From: Shigella phage ESh22 | DNA: 64,000 nt | Strand: one strand, 5' to 3' | Sequence record: ON528732 | Position numbers and translations under genes: made by a program | Notes under the pieces: generated by a model | What the model saw: only the letters and a program-made list of their open reading frames with translations | The model's database searches: none | Told to the model about the DNA's origin: nothing | In this document: piece after piece, positions 3,473 through 16,797 of the stretch | Numbering within the stretch: position 1 is the first letter of the stretch | Layout: each line of letters opens with the position of its first letter

Positions 3473-4888
3473 TTACCAATCGTAACGTTCAGACATTACT
3501 GCTTTTAGCATTACGCTGATTGGGTCAAACTTCTCACCACCAAGTAGAGCCTTTAATGTAGCTGGAGAGAACCCTGAAACCATTGCTACTCCGTTATCAT
3601 TAATAGACACTTCGCAGTTACCACCACGATTTGCCAGATACCAGAATACCAACTGAGGCATTTCATAACCTGATTCTTCATACTTACGACGAATTGCTTC
3701 GAAGTTAGTATTACCACGCTGACCATCAACAGAGTTAAACTGCATGTCAGAGAAGATGATAAGCTTACGTGGCATTGCATCTTGAGTCAAGTTATTTCTT
3801 TTACCAATTTCAAGAATCCTGTCAAAAGCAGCTTGAAGGTTTGTTGAACCATACTCTACATGTGACATGACCTGAGCCATACGATTCTTCAGAGAGCCAC
3901 TTAGAGTGATAAAGAATGGATTTGTGGAGTAAACCATTAACTCATCTTTAAAACACCCTGTATTGCGTTCTGCGACGTATAACGCCAAAGATACACCAAT
4001 ATCAAGAGCGTCTACAGAACCGTGACGTTCACACGTCATAGAGCCTGATACGTCAGTCATGCAAAGAATGTTTTCACCACCCTTCATCCAGTTTGGCAGT
4101 GCTTTCCATTGCTCATTAGCCACTTCACTACGACCGTACTTCACAGCTTTGGTGATATCATATGGGTAAACAGCACCAGCGTTAATCTTGGTAGTACCCT
4201 CTGTCAGAGCTTTTACATACTCTGCATAACGTTCTCCACCTTTTCGTGTGAACAATTTCTGATAACGTGCAGCAGCCAGTGAAGGAAGCTTGCTGTAATC
4301 AATCTCACCAAACTCATTTGCAGAAATCTTTTGCTCTACGGTATCTGACAGTGCTGATAACATCAGACGATACTCTTTCTGGCTTAGATTTGCAAACTTG
4401 CAGAAACGCTTTACAAAATTCATGTGACGCTTCTTAACTCTTGGCAGCCACTTAGCAGCTAACGCTGAAGTGTTTGGGTCCAACAGTCCTTGCTCAATGT
4501 GCTTGAAAGCATCAGTCTCGTAACGAGTACCTACGAAGATTTTGAAGTCATCATAACGACCTAGTTCAGAAATCTTAGCCATGATACGCAGAACTTGGAA
4601 CTCATCAAGTATGTTGGTTCTGATAGATTCTGATAGGACAGTTCTGAATGCTTTACGTTCTCCCATACCTTCTCGTGCATCTCGCATATGAAGTAAGATT
4701 CGAACCGCTACATCGATATCTTCTCGCAGAGCTTTGTAAAACAGATTTGGTAGAGTCTCTGGGTAGTTACGGCTTGAACCAGCAGCCTTATAAAAGTCTA
4801 CCAAGGCAGACATTGAGGTCAGATGGTTAACAGCACCATTTTCAGTCAAACCAGCATGTAATTTTGCGTGGTTAAATAATTCGCTCAT
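3473..4888 (-). CDS. vWA-domain protein (MIDAS DxSGS motif) with N-terminal helical domain; DUF2828/TROVE-like architecture
   Basis: Track ORF 3473..4957; start moved to ATG at 4888 (MSELFNHAKL). C-terminal motif LCMTDVSGSM typical of vWA MIDAS. Confidence 0.5.
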   Translation of the reverse strand: MSELFNHAKLHAGLTENGAVNHLTSMSALVDFYKAAGSSRNYPETLPNLFYKALREDIDVAVRILLHMRDAREGMGERKAFRTVLSESIRTNILDEFQVLRIMAKISELGRYDDFKIFVGTRYETDAFKHIEQGLLDPNTSALAAKWLPRVKKRHMNFVKRFCKFANLSQKEYRLMLSALSDTVEQKISANEFGEIDYSKLPSLAAARYQKLFTRKGGERYAEYVKALTEGTTKINAGAVYPYDITKAVKYGRSEVANEQWKALPNWMKGGENILCMTDVSGSMTCERHGSVDALDIGVSLALYVAERNTGCFKDELMVYSTNPFFITLSGSLKNRMAQVMSHVEYGSTNLQAAFDRILEIGKRNNLTQDAMPRKLIIFSDMQFNSVDGQRGNTNFEAIRRKYEESGYEMPQLVFWYLANRGGNCEVSINDNGVAMVSGFSPATLKALLGGEKFDPISVMLKAVMSERYDW

Positions 4889-4966
4889 AATACTCTCTCT
4901 TCTCTCATTGTTGTTGATGAGACAGACTCTAAAGTAACCAATAAAGTCTGTCAACACCTTTTTAAA

Positions 4967-7845: not shown

Positions 7846-8310
7846 ATGCAATTATCCCCTCAAGGATTGGAAGCTATCAAGTTCTTTGAGGGTCTTCGTT
7901 TAGAAGCCTACAAAGACTCTGCTGGTATTCCTACAATTGGTTATGGTACAATCCGTATCAATGGTCAACCTGTCAAGATGGGTATGAAAATCACTGAAGC
8001 CCAAGCTAACAGTTATCTACTTGCTGATGTTGAGAAGTTTGTAGTAGCTGTGAACAAAGCTATCAATGCTCCAACTACCCAGAATGAATTTGACGCACTG
8101 GTTATTGAAACCTACAACATCGGTATTGGGGCTATGAAGGAATCAACCTTCATGAAGCGTCACAATGCTGGTAACAAAGTTGGCTGTGCAGAAGCTATGC
8201 AGTGGTGGAATAAGGTAACCATCAACGGTCAGAAAGTTGCTTCTAAAGGTCTGACAAACAGACGTAGAATGGAAGCGAAGATTTATCTTGACGCGGTATA
8301 TCCAAAGTAA
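7846..8310 (+). CDS. endolysin, GH24 phage lysozyme
   Basis: 154 aa; FEGLRLEAYKDSAGIPTIGYG matches T4/lambda lysozyme catalytic region. Confidence 0.8.
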   Translation: MQLSPQGLEAIKFFEGLRLEAYKDSAGIPTIGYGTIRINGQPVKMGMKITEAQANSYLLADVEKFVVAVNKAINAPTTQNEFDALVIETYNIGIGAMKESTFMKRHNAGNKVGCAEAMQWWNKVTINGQKVASKGLTNRRRMEAKIYLDAVYPK

Positions 8311-8320
8311 TATATTCATA

Positions 8321-8345
8321 GGCTCCTTCGGGAGCCTTTTTTATT
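8321..8345 (+). terminator. rho-independent terminator
   Basis: Hairpin GGCTCCTTCGGGAGCC followed by TTTTTTATTTT. Confidence 0.65.
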
Positions 8346-8361
8346 TTCTAAGGAGAAAACT

Positions 8362-8760
8362 ATGAAACTTTGGGCTGATGATGTTGGTACTTTTAAGTAC
8401 ACAAGAAGCGGTATGAAGGTCAGAGTCTATGGAAGCAAACTTATCACTTACGGAGGTAAGGTTGTCACCAAGTTTATTGTTGAGGTCATTGAGCATTCAC
8501 CTATCACAATGGCTAACAAAGGGTTCTACACAAACGAACTTTATGACGTGAACGATGATGGCCTTTTCTGCTCTCTCGGTGAAAGTTCTTTAGATATTAT
8601 TTCAGAACACCACTTGACAAGAGAACAGTTATCAGGTTACTATAAAACTCTACTTGAGAAACAGAAAGCGATGCACAATCGTGAGGCTATTTACCACAAC
8701 GACCAGTGCAATAAACTTCTGGATAAGATTGAGAAAGCTGAGAGAGGTTATTATGAATAA
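8362..8760 (+). CDS. hypothetical protein
   Basis: 132 aa ORF with AAGGAGA RBS upstream. Confidence 0.5.
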   Translation: MKLWADDVGTFKYTRSGMKVRVYGSKLITYGGKVVTKFIVEVIEHSPITMANKGFYTNELYDVNDDGLFCSLGESSLDIISEHHLTREQLSGYYKTLLEKQKAMHNREAIYHNDQCNKLLDKIEKAERGYYE

Positions 8761-9133
8761 AGAGATTCCAGTAATTGTTGACGTTTCTGCTCATGGAAAC
8801 ATGGGTGAGCAAGAAGCAAATGCAGTTGTGTACCAACATAACGGTGAGTTGCGACTTCGTTTTGTGAAAAGTGGTAGTGTCCTACATCACCGATATAACG
8901 ATGAAGATGGTTGTCCTGTCTTTGGTTGGTGTGGTATTGACTTCCCGAAATATGCCATTTACTACCCAGATGGTCAGGAAGGCTGGACTACCCAATCTAT
9001 CTATGATGAACTGAACGGAGTACCACTTGAAGAAGAACTGCAAGATACCTTACTAACCTTCACCTTTATCAAAGAAGAGAAAGTTGGTGATATTTCTATA
9101 ACAGAAGCGCTGCAAGTGACACAGGTAATCTGA
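8753..9133 (+). CDS. hypothetical protein
   Basis: Track ORF 8654..9133; start moved to ATG at 8753 (MNKEIPV) overlapping upstream stop. Confidence 0.45.
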   Translation: MNKEIPVIVDVSAHGNMGEQEANAVVYQHNGELRLRFVKSGSVLHHRYNDEDGCPVFGWCGIDFPKYAIYYPDGQEGWTTQSIYDELNGVPLEEELQDTLLTFTFIKEEKVGDISITEALQVTQVI

Positions 9134-9134
9134 T

Positions 9135-9428
9135 ATGAGTAGAGTACAGGTTATCTTTCCAATTAATGACTTCAGCTATGAAGCTGATTTTGACCTGTAC
9201 GAAGAACTGACTGATGATGTTATCTGGGGTGTAGTAACAAAGGCCATTAAGAAACTTTATGGTGGCCTTTTAAACCCTAATAACCCGAAGGTATCAACAA
9301 AGCAAGTTTCTGAGCCATACACAAGCTATGATGCTGAAAAGAGTAAGTTTGAGATTACTTGCTATGACCTTCTGATATCTGATAACAAAATCAACTACTT
9401 CTTCGTCAGAGAATATGCAGATGCTTAA
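9135..9428 (+). CDS. hypothetical protein
   Basis: 97 aa ORF in operon. Confidence 0.45.
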   Translation: MSRVQVIFPINDFSYEADFDLYEELTDDVIWGVVTKAIKKLYGGLLNPNNPKVSTKQVSEPYTSYDAEKSKFEITCYDLLISDNKINYFFVREYADA

Positions 9429-9765
9429 GCTCCACATAGTTGTTTATAAGAATTTCGCAGATATACAAGAATCCCTATCATCAAGACTTGATATGTGTCA
9501 GCAAAGATTATTTCTGATGTTAGACATGCTTGACTATAAACAACCTGATAAGCTTGTGTATAAAGATGGTACAGTAATACTGAAAAGTAAAGAATCAGTG
9601 ACCATTTTTGTTAAGCATGATATGCCAGCTAAGAGTATAGGGATGCTTGAGTTCTATATCTACCAATCCACAGGTATGCGTGGTGAGGGTATTAAAATAA
9701 ATTCTATTGAGGTCTTTGAAAAACCGAAGACACCACTTAAAAAGTATTTAGTGAGGAAGCTATAG
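9415..9765 (+). CDS. hypothetical protein
   Basis: 116 aa ORF in operon. Confidence 0.45.
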   Translation: MQMLKLHIVVYKNFADIQESLSSRLDMCQQRLFLMLDMLDYKQPDKLVYKDGTVILKSKESVTIFVKHDMPAKSIGMLEFYIYQSTGMRGEGIKINSIEVFEKPKTPLKKYLVRKL

Positions 9766-13385: not shown

Positions 13386-14053
13386 TTATGGGACACCTAC
13401 TGAAGAAGAGTTGGAAGAACTTAACAGATATGGTTCCCCATCTGAAGAGGAAGCGGAAGAACTCCGAAGAATGGGAAGCAATTACTAAGAAATGTTTTAA
13501 GGATTTGATAGAGATGGAAAAGTTTGAACTTGAAAGAAAGTATCTGGTACTGAGTCTAGATGATATCAATACATATCTTGATGAAAGTGAGAAGTGGTCT
13601 TTAGAATTACTTGTTAATCGACTTAAGATGGAACGAGAAGACTCAGGTAAAGAGCCACTTGAAGGTATCTTTGTGAATAAATCTTATCCGTTCTATGAAG
13701 AGACTTTGAAGAAGCTTGAGATGTATGTTAAGCAGCAGAACCGTAAAGAAATCTCTATGGCCTCTTTAGGTGGTCAACAGATGCTCTTTGCAGAAGATAT
13801 AAACCCTTCACGAGTTAATAGAGGTGTCTGTATAAAAATCACAGGGAAAGAAGAGTTTCTTTCTAAAGCTGACTTGGAAAGTTTCTGTACAGGGTTTGGT
13901 TCAGTGTTTAACGGGAATCGTTATCACATTCAATGCTTCCCTATCAAGGGTCACACTATAATGTTACAGATACGAGAATCACATAACGGAGACACTCACT
14001 TCTTTCACACGACTATTCCAGCTATTCAGGCTGTTATAGAGAACCTTTGCTAA
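13382..14053 (+). CDS. hypothetical protein
   Basis: 223 aa ORF, last gene of the plus-strand block. Confidence 0.5.
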   Translation: MIMGHLLKKSWKNLTDMVPHLKRKRKNSEEWEAITKKCFKDLIEMEKFELERKYLVLSLDDINTYLDESEKWSLELLVNRLKMEREDSGKEPLEGIFVNKSYPFYEETLKKLEMYVKQQNRKEISMASLGGQQMLFAEDINPSRVNRGVCIKITGKEEFLSKADLESFCTGFGSVFNGNRYHIQCFPIKGHTIMLQIRESHNGDTHFFHTTIPAIQAVIENLC

Positions 14054-15700
14054 GAACTACATAGCCCCTTAATATGGATTCGATAGAATCTATCTCATAG
14101 GGGCTTTTTATTGAGTAAAATTTACGAAATTTATATTTCTTATAAAATTTGGATTCACTCCGTTCATCTTGGGTCACCATGATATGTGATAAAATATCAA
14201 TACCCTCTTCAACAACCTATCTAAGCATACTCTCTATATAGTATTATATAGTATCTATATAGCCTCTTAGTCCCTATCTAGTGAAACTATATAGCCCCTT
14301 CTAAATAGCCCTTTATAAAGCTCTCTAACAAGCCCTCTTCCACACCTATACAATCACCTTCCTAGCTTCTCCATAGCCCCTTAGAAGCCCCTATATCCAT
14401 CTTAATCTCTATGTTAAGGATGATACCCTCTATAGATGGTTCACTAGGGTCAACTAAGCCTCTATATAGACTGTTATATAACACTAAACAGGTATTCCCT
14501 GTAAAGGCTTATCCTACAAGGTCTAACACGTTACTAACAAGATATCTTATAAGCCTGTTATTACCTGTTTTATAGAAGATAGTGTATAGATAGTTATTCA
14601 GTTCTATAAAATTTTTATAAAATAGACTAGGTAGGTCACTTTTTAGGTTCTTGGGAGTATCTGAAAAATATCTACAAAGGGTGTATATCTGCTTGGTAGC
14701 CCTTAACAGCCCTGTAACATCCCCTTTGCAGTTTTTTAAAATATCATTAACAATTTCTTTACAACTCTAACAAGTCTCTAACAAGTCTCCATAGTTCTTA
14801 ACAATCCCTTAATAGTTCTAACAAGGATGTAACAAGAGTTTAACAGTTCTTACAAGGGTCTAACAAACTACTAACAAGTCCCTAACATGTTAAATTTAAA
14901 AGTTATTTTGTTAAGATTATTAACAAGTGTCTATTAAGTTCTTAACATGTTTAACAGTTTATTAACATGGTCACTACCTCTTGGTCTATAGTTCCCTATC
15001 CCTCTCAGTGATTCTCTAAACAGCCCTCTTAAAAGCCCTGTATAGCTCTATGTAGCCTCTTCTAAGGTTCTTCCTAGTATCTATACCCCAATTACCTGTA
15101 TAGCTCTTTATAGCCCTTTACAGGGGCTTATATAGGTACTTCAAAGAGCCTAACAAGGTTGTAACGTAGTCTTAACAGAGATTTAACAAGGTGCTAACAA
15201 GTTGCTAATAAGCATAACTATGTAGGGATTGTTAAGATTTTGTTAAAGAAATGTTAAGGGGGCTAGCTTTTACGATACTTTTACGTAACTCTTAAGTAAC
15301 TTCATAGCCCCTATAACATACTTCATAACCACTATCAAGCCCCTGTTTAACTATTCACAAGATACTAACGAGATAATAAAGCTTATACCCCTTATAAGAT
15401 TCTTTTAAGGCTCTAGAAAGCTCTATAAAGGGCTTTTAAGAAGTGGTTAATATGATTGCTTAAGATGAGATGATAAGCCCGTATAGAGCGTTATAGAGCG
15501 TTATAGAGATTGCCCTTCCCTTTCGGGTTATGGGCTTATATTTAAGGGAAAAGTTAGTTGATTTGATAAGAGGTTATAGAGTAAGCTATAGAGTTATTAC
15601 TCTAAATGTCTTACAAGGTTCTGGGAAGGGATTTAGTTAGACGTAAAAAAGCCCCATTGAAGGGGCTTGTATAGGGTCTGGGGCTATTTGCCCCGTTGCG
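14054..15700. repeat. ORF-free, repeat-rich, strand-skewed non-coding region (short degenerate repeats TAACAAG, ATAGCCCCT; tandem 10-mer x3 at 15481-15512)
   Basis: No ORF of 60 aa or more in any frame; stop-codon-dense; flanked by convergent transcription units. Confidence 0.6.
15645..15668 (-). terminator. rho-independent terminator ending the minus-strand early block
   Basis: Minus-strand hairpin GCCCCTTCAATGGGGC followed by TTTTTT. Confidence 0.6.
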
Positions 15701-15708
15701 GCGTCTTG

Positions 15709-15957
15709 TTAGTTGCGGCCTTCTTTATCGTAATAGATAGAGATAAGAGAATCGCCCCAATAGTAAGATGAAACGCCATTTGCTAAAATCTCGTCTTTCG
15801 TTTCTTTCCAGAACCATTCAGCAGGGTTGTATTCTTTCACAGTTGCTTTCAGACACATATCAACCATATCAAAAGCGTTTCCAGTGTTTACCATGTCAAA
15901 CTTAACGTCCAGAGCATAAAAACCAAAATTGTTAACAGTTGCGCGGATAGTTGCCAT
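15709..15957 (-). CDS. hypothetical early protein
   Basis: 82 aa ORF; conserved CCTAAACTGGAGA leader immediately upstream. Confidence 0.5.
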   Translation of the reverse strand: MATIRATVNNFGFYALDVKFDMVNTGNAFDMVDMCLKATVKEYNPAEWFWKETKDEILANGVSSYYWGDSLISIYYDKEGRN

Positions 15958-15999
15958 TTTTAGAATCTCCAGTTTAGGATTATTGTTTATTGAGTCTCT

Positions 16000-16028
16000 A
16001 TAGTAGGGGCTTTGAAGCCCCTTGTCAA
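16000..16028 (-). promoter_or_regulatory. sigma70-like promoter with GC palindrome in spacer
   Basis: Minus strand TTGACA, 17-nt spacer AGGGGCTTCAAAGCCCC, TACTAT, followed by conserved leader with GGAGA RBS. Confidence 0.55.
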
Positions 16029-16032
16029 TACT

Positions 16033-16209
16033 TTAAATCACTTTCTTGTAAGAATTGCCGGAAATGATGTAGTTAGTAACTGAATGATTTAACAAGTCTG
16101 TACCAGTGATGACTACCATTTCTTCATTTTTCTTTTCTTCATGCTCTTTTTTCATTTCTTCCCAACGTTTAGCACCAAATTTTGCAATCATACGCTGTTC
16201 AAAATTCAT
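16033..16209 (-). CDS. small hypothetical protein (about 58 aa)
   Basis: ORF below track size cut-off, preceded by the conserved leader at 16210-16232. Confidence 0.35.
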   Translation of the reverse strand: MNFEQRMIAKFGAKRWEEMKKEHEEKKNEEMVVITGTDLLNHSVTNYIISGNSYKKVI

Positions 16210-16269
16210 CTTTTAAGTCTCCAGTTTAGGATTATGGGGAAGGTCATTCCCTCCCCGTTGATAAGTACT

Positions 16270-16797
16270 TTAAATGTTTGCTATCGTGTCGTCAAGTGAA
16301 TTTTCTAAGTTTTTTAAAGATTGTTCGTAAAGTCGAATTGACCTGTTCAATGCCTCGCCTAACGTTACTTTAAAAATAGTTGTTGGGTAGTCACTTGTAA
16401 ATAGATTTTCTACTTCATAGAGCGCATGTTGATGATTACCCGTCCCCATAGCATACATCCCCGTATGGTGGATTGCAATAAAAAGATTAAGAGACTTGAT
16501 AGAACGCTCATAAGCCATTTTATAGCGGTTTAGCTCGTTTTTAGTGGCTTTTATAGCCATTTCGTGAATCTCTGCAACGATAGCCATATAGTCTGGCAGA
16601 ATGACCGCTATGGCTTTCATAAAGTTGTTAGCTGTTACCATTTGCTGATTTGGGCGATGGATGTAATACTTCTTGTCTTCCCCTTTTGTGATAACTGCAA
16701 ACAACTTATCTTTAAGGGTAAATTCGAAAGTGTCTTTCACAGGTTTTTTCATTACATCTTTTGAGCGGATAGCATTGATTGCATTGAACTTATTCAT
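16270..16797 (-). CDS. hypothetical early protein
   Basis: 175 aa ORF preceded by conserved leader. Confidence 0.5.
   Translation of the reverse strand: MNKFNAINAIRSKDVMKKPVKDTFEFTLKDKLFAVITKGEDKKYYIHRPNQQMVTANNFMKAIAVILPDYMAIVAEIHEMAIKATKNELNRYKMAYERSIKSLNLFIAIHHTGMYAMGTGNHQHALYEVENLFTSDYPTTIFKVTLGEALNRSIRLYEQSLKNLENSLDDTIANI

Follow-up and report, generated by a model that had tools for sequence, protein, structure and literature searches.

A gene-free region of Shigella phage ESh22 very probably contains the terminal repeat of a Felix O1-like genome and carries helically phased repeat arrays

The 64,000-nucleotide stretch of the genome of Shigella phage ESh22 that we analyzed (the window) contains a 1.65-kb gene-free region at 14054–15708, bounded by the stop of a plus-strand gene block at 14053 and the stop of a minus-strand gene block at 15709. 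Homology to relatives with mapped ends indicates that this region very probably marks the terminus of a Felix O1-like myophage genome (subfamily Ounavirinae), or the junction between genomes in a concatemer. A terminus with a direct terminal repeat (DTR) is already known for the Felix O1-like group, and the feature is largely ordinary. What interest remains lies in phased arrays of a short motif and in the symmetry of the repeat boundaries, which together suggest a testable recognition mechanism.

Several lines of evidence place the repeat. First, the database records of phages Pr103Blw, Ro111lw, and D4, the ends of which were set with PhageTerm (PMC8303462; PMC6454146; PMC11737134), begin and end with one exact repeat each, of 581, 613, and 581 bp, respectively. 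All of these repeats map to 15263 through 14695 of the window, starting with GCCCCCTTAACATTTTC and ending with GTTAAGGGCTACC, with the starts of the three records at 15263 and their ends at the left boundary. Second, time-limited Bal31 digestion of UAB_Phi87 DNA removed two SpeI fragments, run-off sequencing gave a DTR of 608 bp, and cos ends were excluded by heating of digests (PMC4837284). The published UAB_Phi87 repeat, 608 bp in JN225449, aligns end to end with 15255 through 14693 of the window, and the boundaries from run-off sequencing and PhageTerm are 2 nt apart at one end and 8 nt apart at the other. Third, the records of H12, ZX4221, pEP20, and KMM2 start or stop at the ends of their match to the DTR segment. 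The large terminase of the relatives has been assigned to a Felix O1 DTR clade (PMC4837284), and the Felix O1 genome paper inferred "short terminal repeats" from PFGE, giving no location. The DTR segment is present once in the 64-kb window. Because the mapped repeats of the relatives align with this single-copy segment, we place the DTR of ESh22 at 14695–15263.

In the window sequence the two terminal copies appear to have been collapsed into a single DTR, as expected when an assembly merges them. In the virion, the first 569 bp of the linear DNA would be the reverse complement of 15263..14695, and these 569 bp would recur at the far end; with the repeat at the virion ends, both terminal gene blocks would read outwards to the ends and be closed there by terminators. 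The records of Z31 and BPS17L1 break at ~15062 instead, and these are probably assembly breaks. A preliminary description of this DNA had offered four options for the region, namely a terminus, a packaging site, a replication origin, or a long non-coding RNA, and had proposed comparison with related phages as a check. In that comparison the mapped ends of the relatives coincide with the region, and the 569-bp segment orthologous to a mapped DTR favors the first two options; the origin and the long RNA gained no support. Read-start analysis, another check that it proposed, had already settled the termini in the relatives.

Coordinates of features in the gene-free region of the ESh22 window. A caret marks the predicted end or nick.
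Feature	Position	Strand	Description
Terminator closing the plus-strand block	14063..14113	+	Intrinsic; nested hairpin AGCCCCU...AGGGGCU, then U-run
Left flank	14054..14694		In the virion, would lie just inside the end carrying the reverse complement of 15263..14695
Left DTR boundary element	14683..14720	+	GTATATCTGCTT ^ GGTAGCCCTTAACAGCCCTGTAACAT; predicted end or nick between 14694 and 14695
DTR ortholog	14695..15263 (569 bp)		Homology to mapped DTRs of relatives
Main TAACA(A/G)G array	14748..14969	+	All units in plus orientation; spacings of 9, 11, and 20 nt
Second TAACAAG array	15151..15212	+	Five units at 11- or 22-nt spacing
Right boundary with three inverted TTAACA units	15228..15275	-	AATGTTAAGGGGGC ^ TAGCTTTTACGA; predicted end or nick between 15263 and 15264
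Right flank	15264..15708		Inverted copies of left-flank motifs
Terminator closing the minus-strand block	15643..15694	-	Intrinsic; stem 15668 to 15649 plus T-run (TTTTTT)

Phage records matching the region number 247; all but one name an enterobacterial host in their organism field, and those that we retrieved belong to the Ounavirinae (Felix O1-like myophages). Shigella phage ESh21 is closest (92%), followed by Mooglevirus (~85%) and Felixounavirus (~76–80%). A gene-free gap of ~1.6 kb lies between the same convergent genes in Felix O1 (ORF24/ORF23), in Mooglevirus, and in Suspvirus SUSP2, and the equivalent gap in a distant relative, Kolesnikvirus FIfi106, spans 1.49 kb. Between ESh22 and Felix O1, the non-coding region is 75% identical, higher than the 57%, 70%, and 60% seen in three of the flanking genes, and a flanking 223-amino-acid protein has ~50% amino-acid identity to its Felixounavirus homologs. 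Selection in this region acts on the DNA itself and on neither a protein nor a recognized RNA.

The coding content of the region is consistent with that view. The region had been described as free of open reading frames of 60 codons or more, and the longest that we found within 14054–15700 encodes 54 amino acids (14411..14575, plus strand), with all others at 48 or fewer. A search for a conserved small open reading frame across nine relatives found none; the longest frames change place and strand from one phage to another, and in Felix O1 the longest in the region encodes at most 35 amino acids. Because the place and strand of the longest frames vary in this way, the coding sequences annotated in the region in ESh21, Michonne, and UAB_Phi87 are probably spurious. 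Stop trinucleotides occupy 8.6% of positions in the region versus 6.0% window-wide, in keeping with the high stop-codon density noted earlier.

Convergent terminators had also been proposed, and intrinsic terminators do lie at both sides and point into the region. The plus-strand hairpin at 14063–14105, followed by TTTTT, has a folding energy of −21.4 kcal/mol and a z-score of −3.9 relative to shuffled sequences, and a terminator is annotated at the equivalent place in Michonne. For the minus-strand terminator, a z-score of −3.9 relative to shuffles applies to a 73-nt stretch containing the hairpin. A second GC hairpin (15694 to 15680) precedes its stem, and counterparts of this terminator are annotated in both Michonne and Moogle. 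The strand skew is likewise present: the plus strand is C-rich up to ~15250 and the bias reverses after ~15400, with GC skew between −0.06 and −0.47 for windows that begin at 14050–15100, near zero at 15250, and +0.33 at 15400–15699.

The region is strongly enriched in short repeats. TAACAAG occurs 11 times on its plus strand, compared with 0.18 ± 0.4 times in 1000 dinucleotide shuffles, and these copies make up 11 of the 16 on the plus strand of the whole 64 kb. The more permissive motif TAACA[AG] occurs 18 times on the plus strand of the region (1.4 in shuffles), and AGCCC[CT]T occurs 9 times in the region (0.5 in shuffles). A double copy of CTAACAAGTCTC was found at 14767–14789, with the two copies overlapping by one base. 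Of the supposedly perfect triple repeat of CGTTATAGAG, two perfect copies exist (15489–15508), and the copy preceding them reads CGTATAGAG, lacking one T; TRF reports a period of 10 and 2.7 copies at 15482–15508. As the repeats, skew, terminators, and absence of open reading frames all check out, the preliminary description was correct save for the copy number of CGTTATAGAG.

We compared the DTR boundaries among 13 phages of Felixounavirus, Mooglevirus, and Suspvirus and scored conservation in 30-nt blocks among eight genomes from three genera. The left boundary is the best-conserved 30-nt block of the region, with a score of 0.96. On its flank side, GTATATCTGCTT is identical in 13 of 13 phages; on its DTR side, 12 of 13 phages have GGTAGCCCTTAACA, and KMM4 has AGTAGCCCTTAACA, which differs by one substitution at the first base of the repeat. 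The right junction, ATGT(T/A)AAGGGGGC ^ TA(G/A)C, was found in all 13 phages. At this end the repeat starts on the minus strand with GCCCCCTTAACA, and the boundary sequence forms an inverted repeat with 14700–14719. The same element is present in inverted orientation at the two boundaries, as ^GGTAGCCCTTAACA on the plus strand and ^GCCCCCTTAACA on the minus strand, with TAGCCC..TTAACA in common. On the strand predicted to receive the nick, both boundaries begin, 5' to 3', with (GGTA)GCCC(CC)TTAACA and continue with further TTAACA units at 11-nt spacing. The distance from cut to motif is unequal, as the cut is positioned 8 nt upstream of TTAACA on one strand and 6 nt upstream on the other.

Between these boundaries the motif recurs in helical phase. 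Two arrays are oriented on the plus strand, and three inverted units with 11-nt spacing (15228–15256) adjoin the right boundary. A Fourier peak gives an array period of 10.2–10.4 nt, corresponding to one turn of B-DNA. Among the 13 phages, TAACA/TGTTA positions are 94% conserved and spacers 76% conserved (Mann-Whitney p = 1.7e-8), a contrast that would be expected of protein-binding sites. Homologs of the DTR range from 569 to 624 bp in length, and 44 of 48 are within ±1 of 569 + 11k. Because these lengths are stepped by 11 bp, isolates differ by whole array units, together with a 22-nt palindromic insert in some.

The non-coding flanks carry a second family of motifs, which takes opposite orientations on the two sides: ATAGCCCCT and CTCTATA occur to the left of the DTR, and AGGGCT and TATAGAG to its right. 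Clusters of CTCTATA and ATAGCCCCT-type sequences occupy ~14232–14400 of the left flank, which also contains a TAACA pair at 14524–14541. In the right flank, tandem copies of TATAGAGCGT are found at 15480–15508 and copies of TATAGAG at ~15570–15598. A 36-nt inverted repeat links the two flanks, with 15414–15449 pairing with 14292–14327 at 83% complementarity. From 14114 on, the 30-nt blocks of the left flank are 0.72–0.93 conserved, and the two terminator blocks score 0.46 and 0.61; the right-flank block at 15404–15433 scores 0.95.

Elements of this architecture recur in Kolesnikvirus FIfi106. Its gap cannot be aligned with that of ESh22 yet carries TCTTAACA arrays at 11–13 nt, and its right-flank array is built of the related motif TTAGAAG. 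Boundary-like sequences, GTATATCTACTT ^ AGTGGCC and AAAGTGGC ^ TAAC, predict a DTR of ~439 bp; the FIfi106 record is an older circular version that was not opened at the termini, and these ends are predicted by similarity alone.

How might such a repeat be made? In the exact-DTR model, a fixed site is recognized in concatemers, staggered nicks are introduced, and synthesis at 3' ends duplicates the repeat (PMC5557969). Applied to ESh22, this T7-type model would have a single DTR between neighboring genomes in the concatemer. A packaging nuclease would nick each strand once, in staggered fashion, at the side of the repeat that is 5' on that strand, and synthesis from the 3' ends would copy the repeat, allowing every genome to leave with a full DTR. 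Because the inverted boundary elements match, one sequence-specific protein could set both nicks. The phased arrays and flank motifs are predicted binding sites for the recognition component of the packaging machinery or for a partner protein, and proteins bound to units phased at ~10.4 nt would line up along a single face of the double helix. The convergent terminators may keep read-through transcription away from the junction. Two observations fit this model less well: the cut-to-TTAACA distance of 8 nt on one strand but 6 nt on the other, and the 2- and 8-nt offsets between the ends given by run-off sequencing and by PhageTerm.

The identity of the recognition component bears on this model. 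No small terminase has been annotated in the group (PMC4837284), and the D4 annotation has none. A search for TerL and TerS within the 64-kb window found neither; its large open reading frames encode NAMPT, Nrd proteins, a primase-helicase, PolA, and a DUF7788/DUF2828 protein, and in D4 the TerL gene is located ~1.7 kb past the position of the left edge of the window, with small open reading frames of 66 and 244 amino acids immediately upstream of it. In a PHROG scan of the ten open reading frames flanking the region, nine matched only families of unknown function and one matched none. We tentatively propose, as a possibility held with limited confidence, that the TTAACA array and the inverted boundary elements are an assembly platform for a protein that recognizes DNA on behalf of a terminase with no identifiable small subunit. 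A protein bound there would coat one face of the DNA and nick each strand, and array length would set DTR length in quanta of 11 bp. If true, this proposal would explain, by a defined mechanism of recognition, how a myovirus forms an exact DTR.

The same arrays might instead serve as telomere-like sites for end protection or end pairing, at which a bound phage protein, possibly an injected one, blocks RecBCD or pairs DTRs for concatemer recombination. Both virion ends, read inwards, would present a short G/C-rich stretch and then two or three TTAACA units at 11-nt spacing, and the motif is conserved across the subfamily, as this reading would have it. No RecBCD inhibitor or end-binding protein was recognized among the flanking genes, none of which has a known function. 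Most units, however, are 50–500 bp from the ends, deeper than end capping requires. We regard a role of this kind as rather unlikely. It would be compatible with a role in packaging, and sequence alone does not separate the two.

It is improbable that the region is or includes an iteron-type replication origin, in which an initiator would occupy the phased TAACAAG repeats and melting would take place in the neighboring AT-rich stretches at ~14570–14625 and 14885–14920. The 18 plus-strand copies of TAACA[AG] do amount to many direct repeats adjoining AT-rich DNA in a gene-free region, the region is better conserved than the flanking genes, and the phage encodes its own primase-helicase and DNA polymerase; we found no origin defined for it in the literature. 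Iterons in plasmid and lambdoid origins are typically 17–22 bp, however, unlike the 7-nt cores spaced at ~10.4 nt that are seen here. Moreover, the region contains no DnaA box with one mismatch or fewer and no IHF consensus, and its AT-rich stretches are not specific. No initiator-like gene was recognized among the ten flanking open reading frames, nine of which match only PHROG families of unknown function. The arrays also sit exactly inside the mapped DTR, with copy number setting its length, and the skew change at ~15250 tracks motif orientation rather than a genome-wide switch. A search of the region for GATC sites found none. An origin could coexist with a terminus.

A further explanation, which we consider very improbable, is that the region is the source of one long non-coding RNA or of several small ones. 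A conserved block just past the plus-strand terminator (14174–14203, 0.92) contains an extended −10-like sequence, TGATAAAAT, and a promoter scan of 13500–16500 returned 16 weak sites versus 8.9 expected. Against these hints, the sigma-70-like sites in the region reach no more than 9 of 12, and the TTAACA repeat itself supplies the first hexamer of many; both strands of 13800–16000 gave no Rfam 15 match at E ≤ 1; the terminators on both sides point inwards; and conservation of motifs over spacers at the helical period is a signature at the level of DNA. It is hardly credible that the repeats arose by slippage and have no function, in a gap that is tolerated between convergent operons: copy number does differ between isolates in 11-bp steps, as slippage would predict, but motif positions are kept while spacers drift, three genera share near-invariant boundary sequences, the neighboring genes are less conserved than the region, and the architecture is kept in Kolesnikvirus despite the loss of alignable similarity.

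The reading of the region as a terminus has practical consequences. With 14695 and 15263 as probable physical ends, the genome can be oriented and annotated and a second DTR added (+569 bp), and the small "hypothetical proteins" called in the region by some pipelines can be discarded. Felix O1-like phages are widely used in Salmonella typing and biocontrol, and the boundary element and arrays mark what to keep in phages engineered or rebooted from synthetic DNA. To our knowledge, T7 and T3 are the only phages in which the recognition and duplication of an exact terminal repeat have been elucidated in detail. The boundary element and phased arrays offer mutable targets for working out how a terminase with no recognized small subunit finds its site.

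Several better-known systems place motif clusters or repeats in comparable settings. In lambda cosB (R sites), SPP1 (pacL and pacR boxes), and P1 (pac hexamers), clusters of motifs that bind multimeric proteins flank a cleavage site. The analogy with the sites predicted here is functional: those systems make cohesive or headful ends rather than exact DTRs, and their motifs are unrelated to TAACA(A/G)G and far fewer. The parC site of plasmid R1, which is bound by ParR, has about ten or more direct repeats spaced at approximately one helical turn and supports a cooperative filament or ring on one face of the DNA. Here the likeness is in DNA geometry only, as ESh22 is a virulent phage and no partition genes were identified. 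In T5, a gene-free, repeat-rich region is found at the inner end of the terminal repeat, in the region of the injection stop signal. This repeat-dense non-coding stretch beside a terminal repeat resembles the ESh22 region, but the T5 repeat is ~10 kb long and carries genes, and we know of no two-step DNA transfer in Felix O1-like phages.

In T7, arrays of short repeated heptamers are located beside a 160-bp repeat. The repeat in ESh22 is 3.5 times longer and is part of a 1.65-kb gene-free region; both of its neighboring operons read towards the ends, whereas the early promoters of T7 read inwards from the left end; and, in contrast to T7, ESh22 has no phage RNA polymerase and no recognized small terminase. 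The T7/T3 concatemer junction likewise has fixed ends and a short, gene-free, exact repeat, to which the same model of duplication during packaging applies (PMC5557969). This likeness is one of function only, and we claim no sequence similarity.

Papers on relatives of ESh22 give only the length or sequence of the repeat (PMC8303462; PMC4837284; PMC6454146), and the accessible part of the PhageMaP paper on Felixounavirus Bas63 does not mention the region. In the literature on DTRs of this group we found no description of the flank motifs, the element inverted between the boundaries, the phased arrays with their motif-over-spacer conservation, the 11-bp steps in DTR length, or the recurrence of this layout in Suspvirus and Kolesnikvirus. 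The Felix O1-like repeats themselves (UAB_Phi87, Ro111lw, and Pr103Blw) are orthologous to that of ESh22, with 73–78% identity, the same boundaries, the same convergent neighbor genes, and the same 1.6-kb gene-free setting; the 569-bp ESh22 copy differs from them in having fewer whole 11-bp units and in lacking the 22-nt palindromic insert.

Within the gene-free region between the convergent gene blocks, several annotation pipelines call small 'hypothetical proteins' of 25–66 aa, whose strand and location vary. Proteins of this kind were likewise called at equivalent places in the related phages ESh21, Michonne, UAB_Phi87, and D4, and none was conserved among the relatives. A block immediately 3' of the plus-strand terminator was 92% conserved and contained an extended –10-like element, TGATAAAAT, oriented into the non-coding region, for which no good –35 element was found.

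Features of the ESh22 sequence and positions corresponding to features of related phages.
Feature	Window position	Strand	Remark
Small ORF place	14149–14241		
Small ORF place	14411–14575		
Small ORF place	14651–14770		
Conserved block	14174–14203		3' of plus-strand terminator
Extended –10-like element	14187–14195		within conserved block
22-nt insert of relatives	about 14886–14905		corresponding position
21-nt insert of ESh21	near 14975		
Ends of two records	about 15062		within DTR homolog
DUF2828 + DUF7788 protein	3473–4957	–	494 aa

The direct terminal repeats (DTRs) of UAB_Phi87, SUSP2, Ro111lw, and ekra carry a 22-nt insert with the palindromic core GGGATTGGTAACAATACCAATT, which is missing both in the window and in Felix O1. 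ESh21 has a different insert of 21 nt. Two database records, MN655999 (Z31) and NC_042096 (BPS17L1), start or stop within the DTR homolog rather than at its boundaries, and these ends are probably assembly break points in the double-coverage repeat. One of the records that matched this region of an enterobacterial phage bears an organism name beginning with 'Staphylococcus', and its host or name may be mislabelled.

In the Kolesnikvirus Erwinia phage FIfi106, which belongs to a distant genus, the gap between the equivalent convergent blocks (8007–9493 of its sequence) carries arrays of TCTTAACA. On its right flank, TTAGAAG repeats form an array of their own with a spacing of 10–12 nt. The gap also has boundary-like sequences, from which the predicted DTR would occupy 8485–8923 and measure about 439 bp.

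Outside the non-coding region, the D4 counterpart of the 494-aa DUF2828/DUF7788 protein is annotated as 'RNA-binding protein' and adjoins the tRNA cluster, and a preprint on Bas63 places a Ro60-like protein upstream of the tRNA genes of that phage. Across the entire window (1–64000), GATC does not occur once, compared to an expectation of 195 ± 13.5 occurrences from dinucleotide shuffles. In-silico analyses of the relatives VpaE1 and Alf5 are reported to have found no GATC (MboI) sites either, a property also ascribed to further members of the genus (PMC4690856; PMC5477317).
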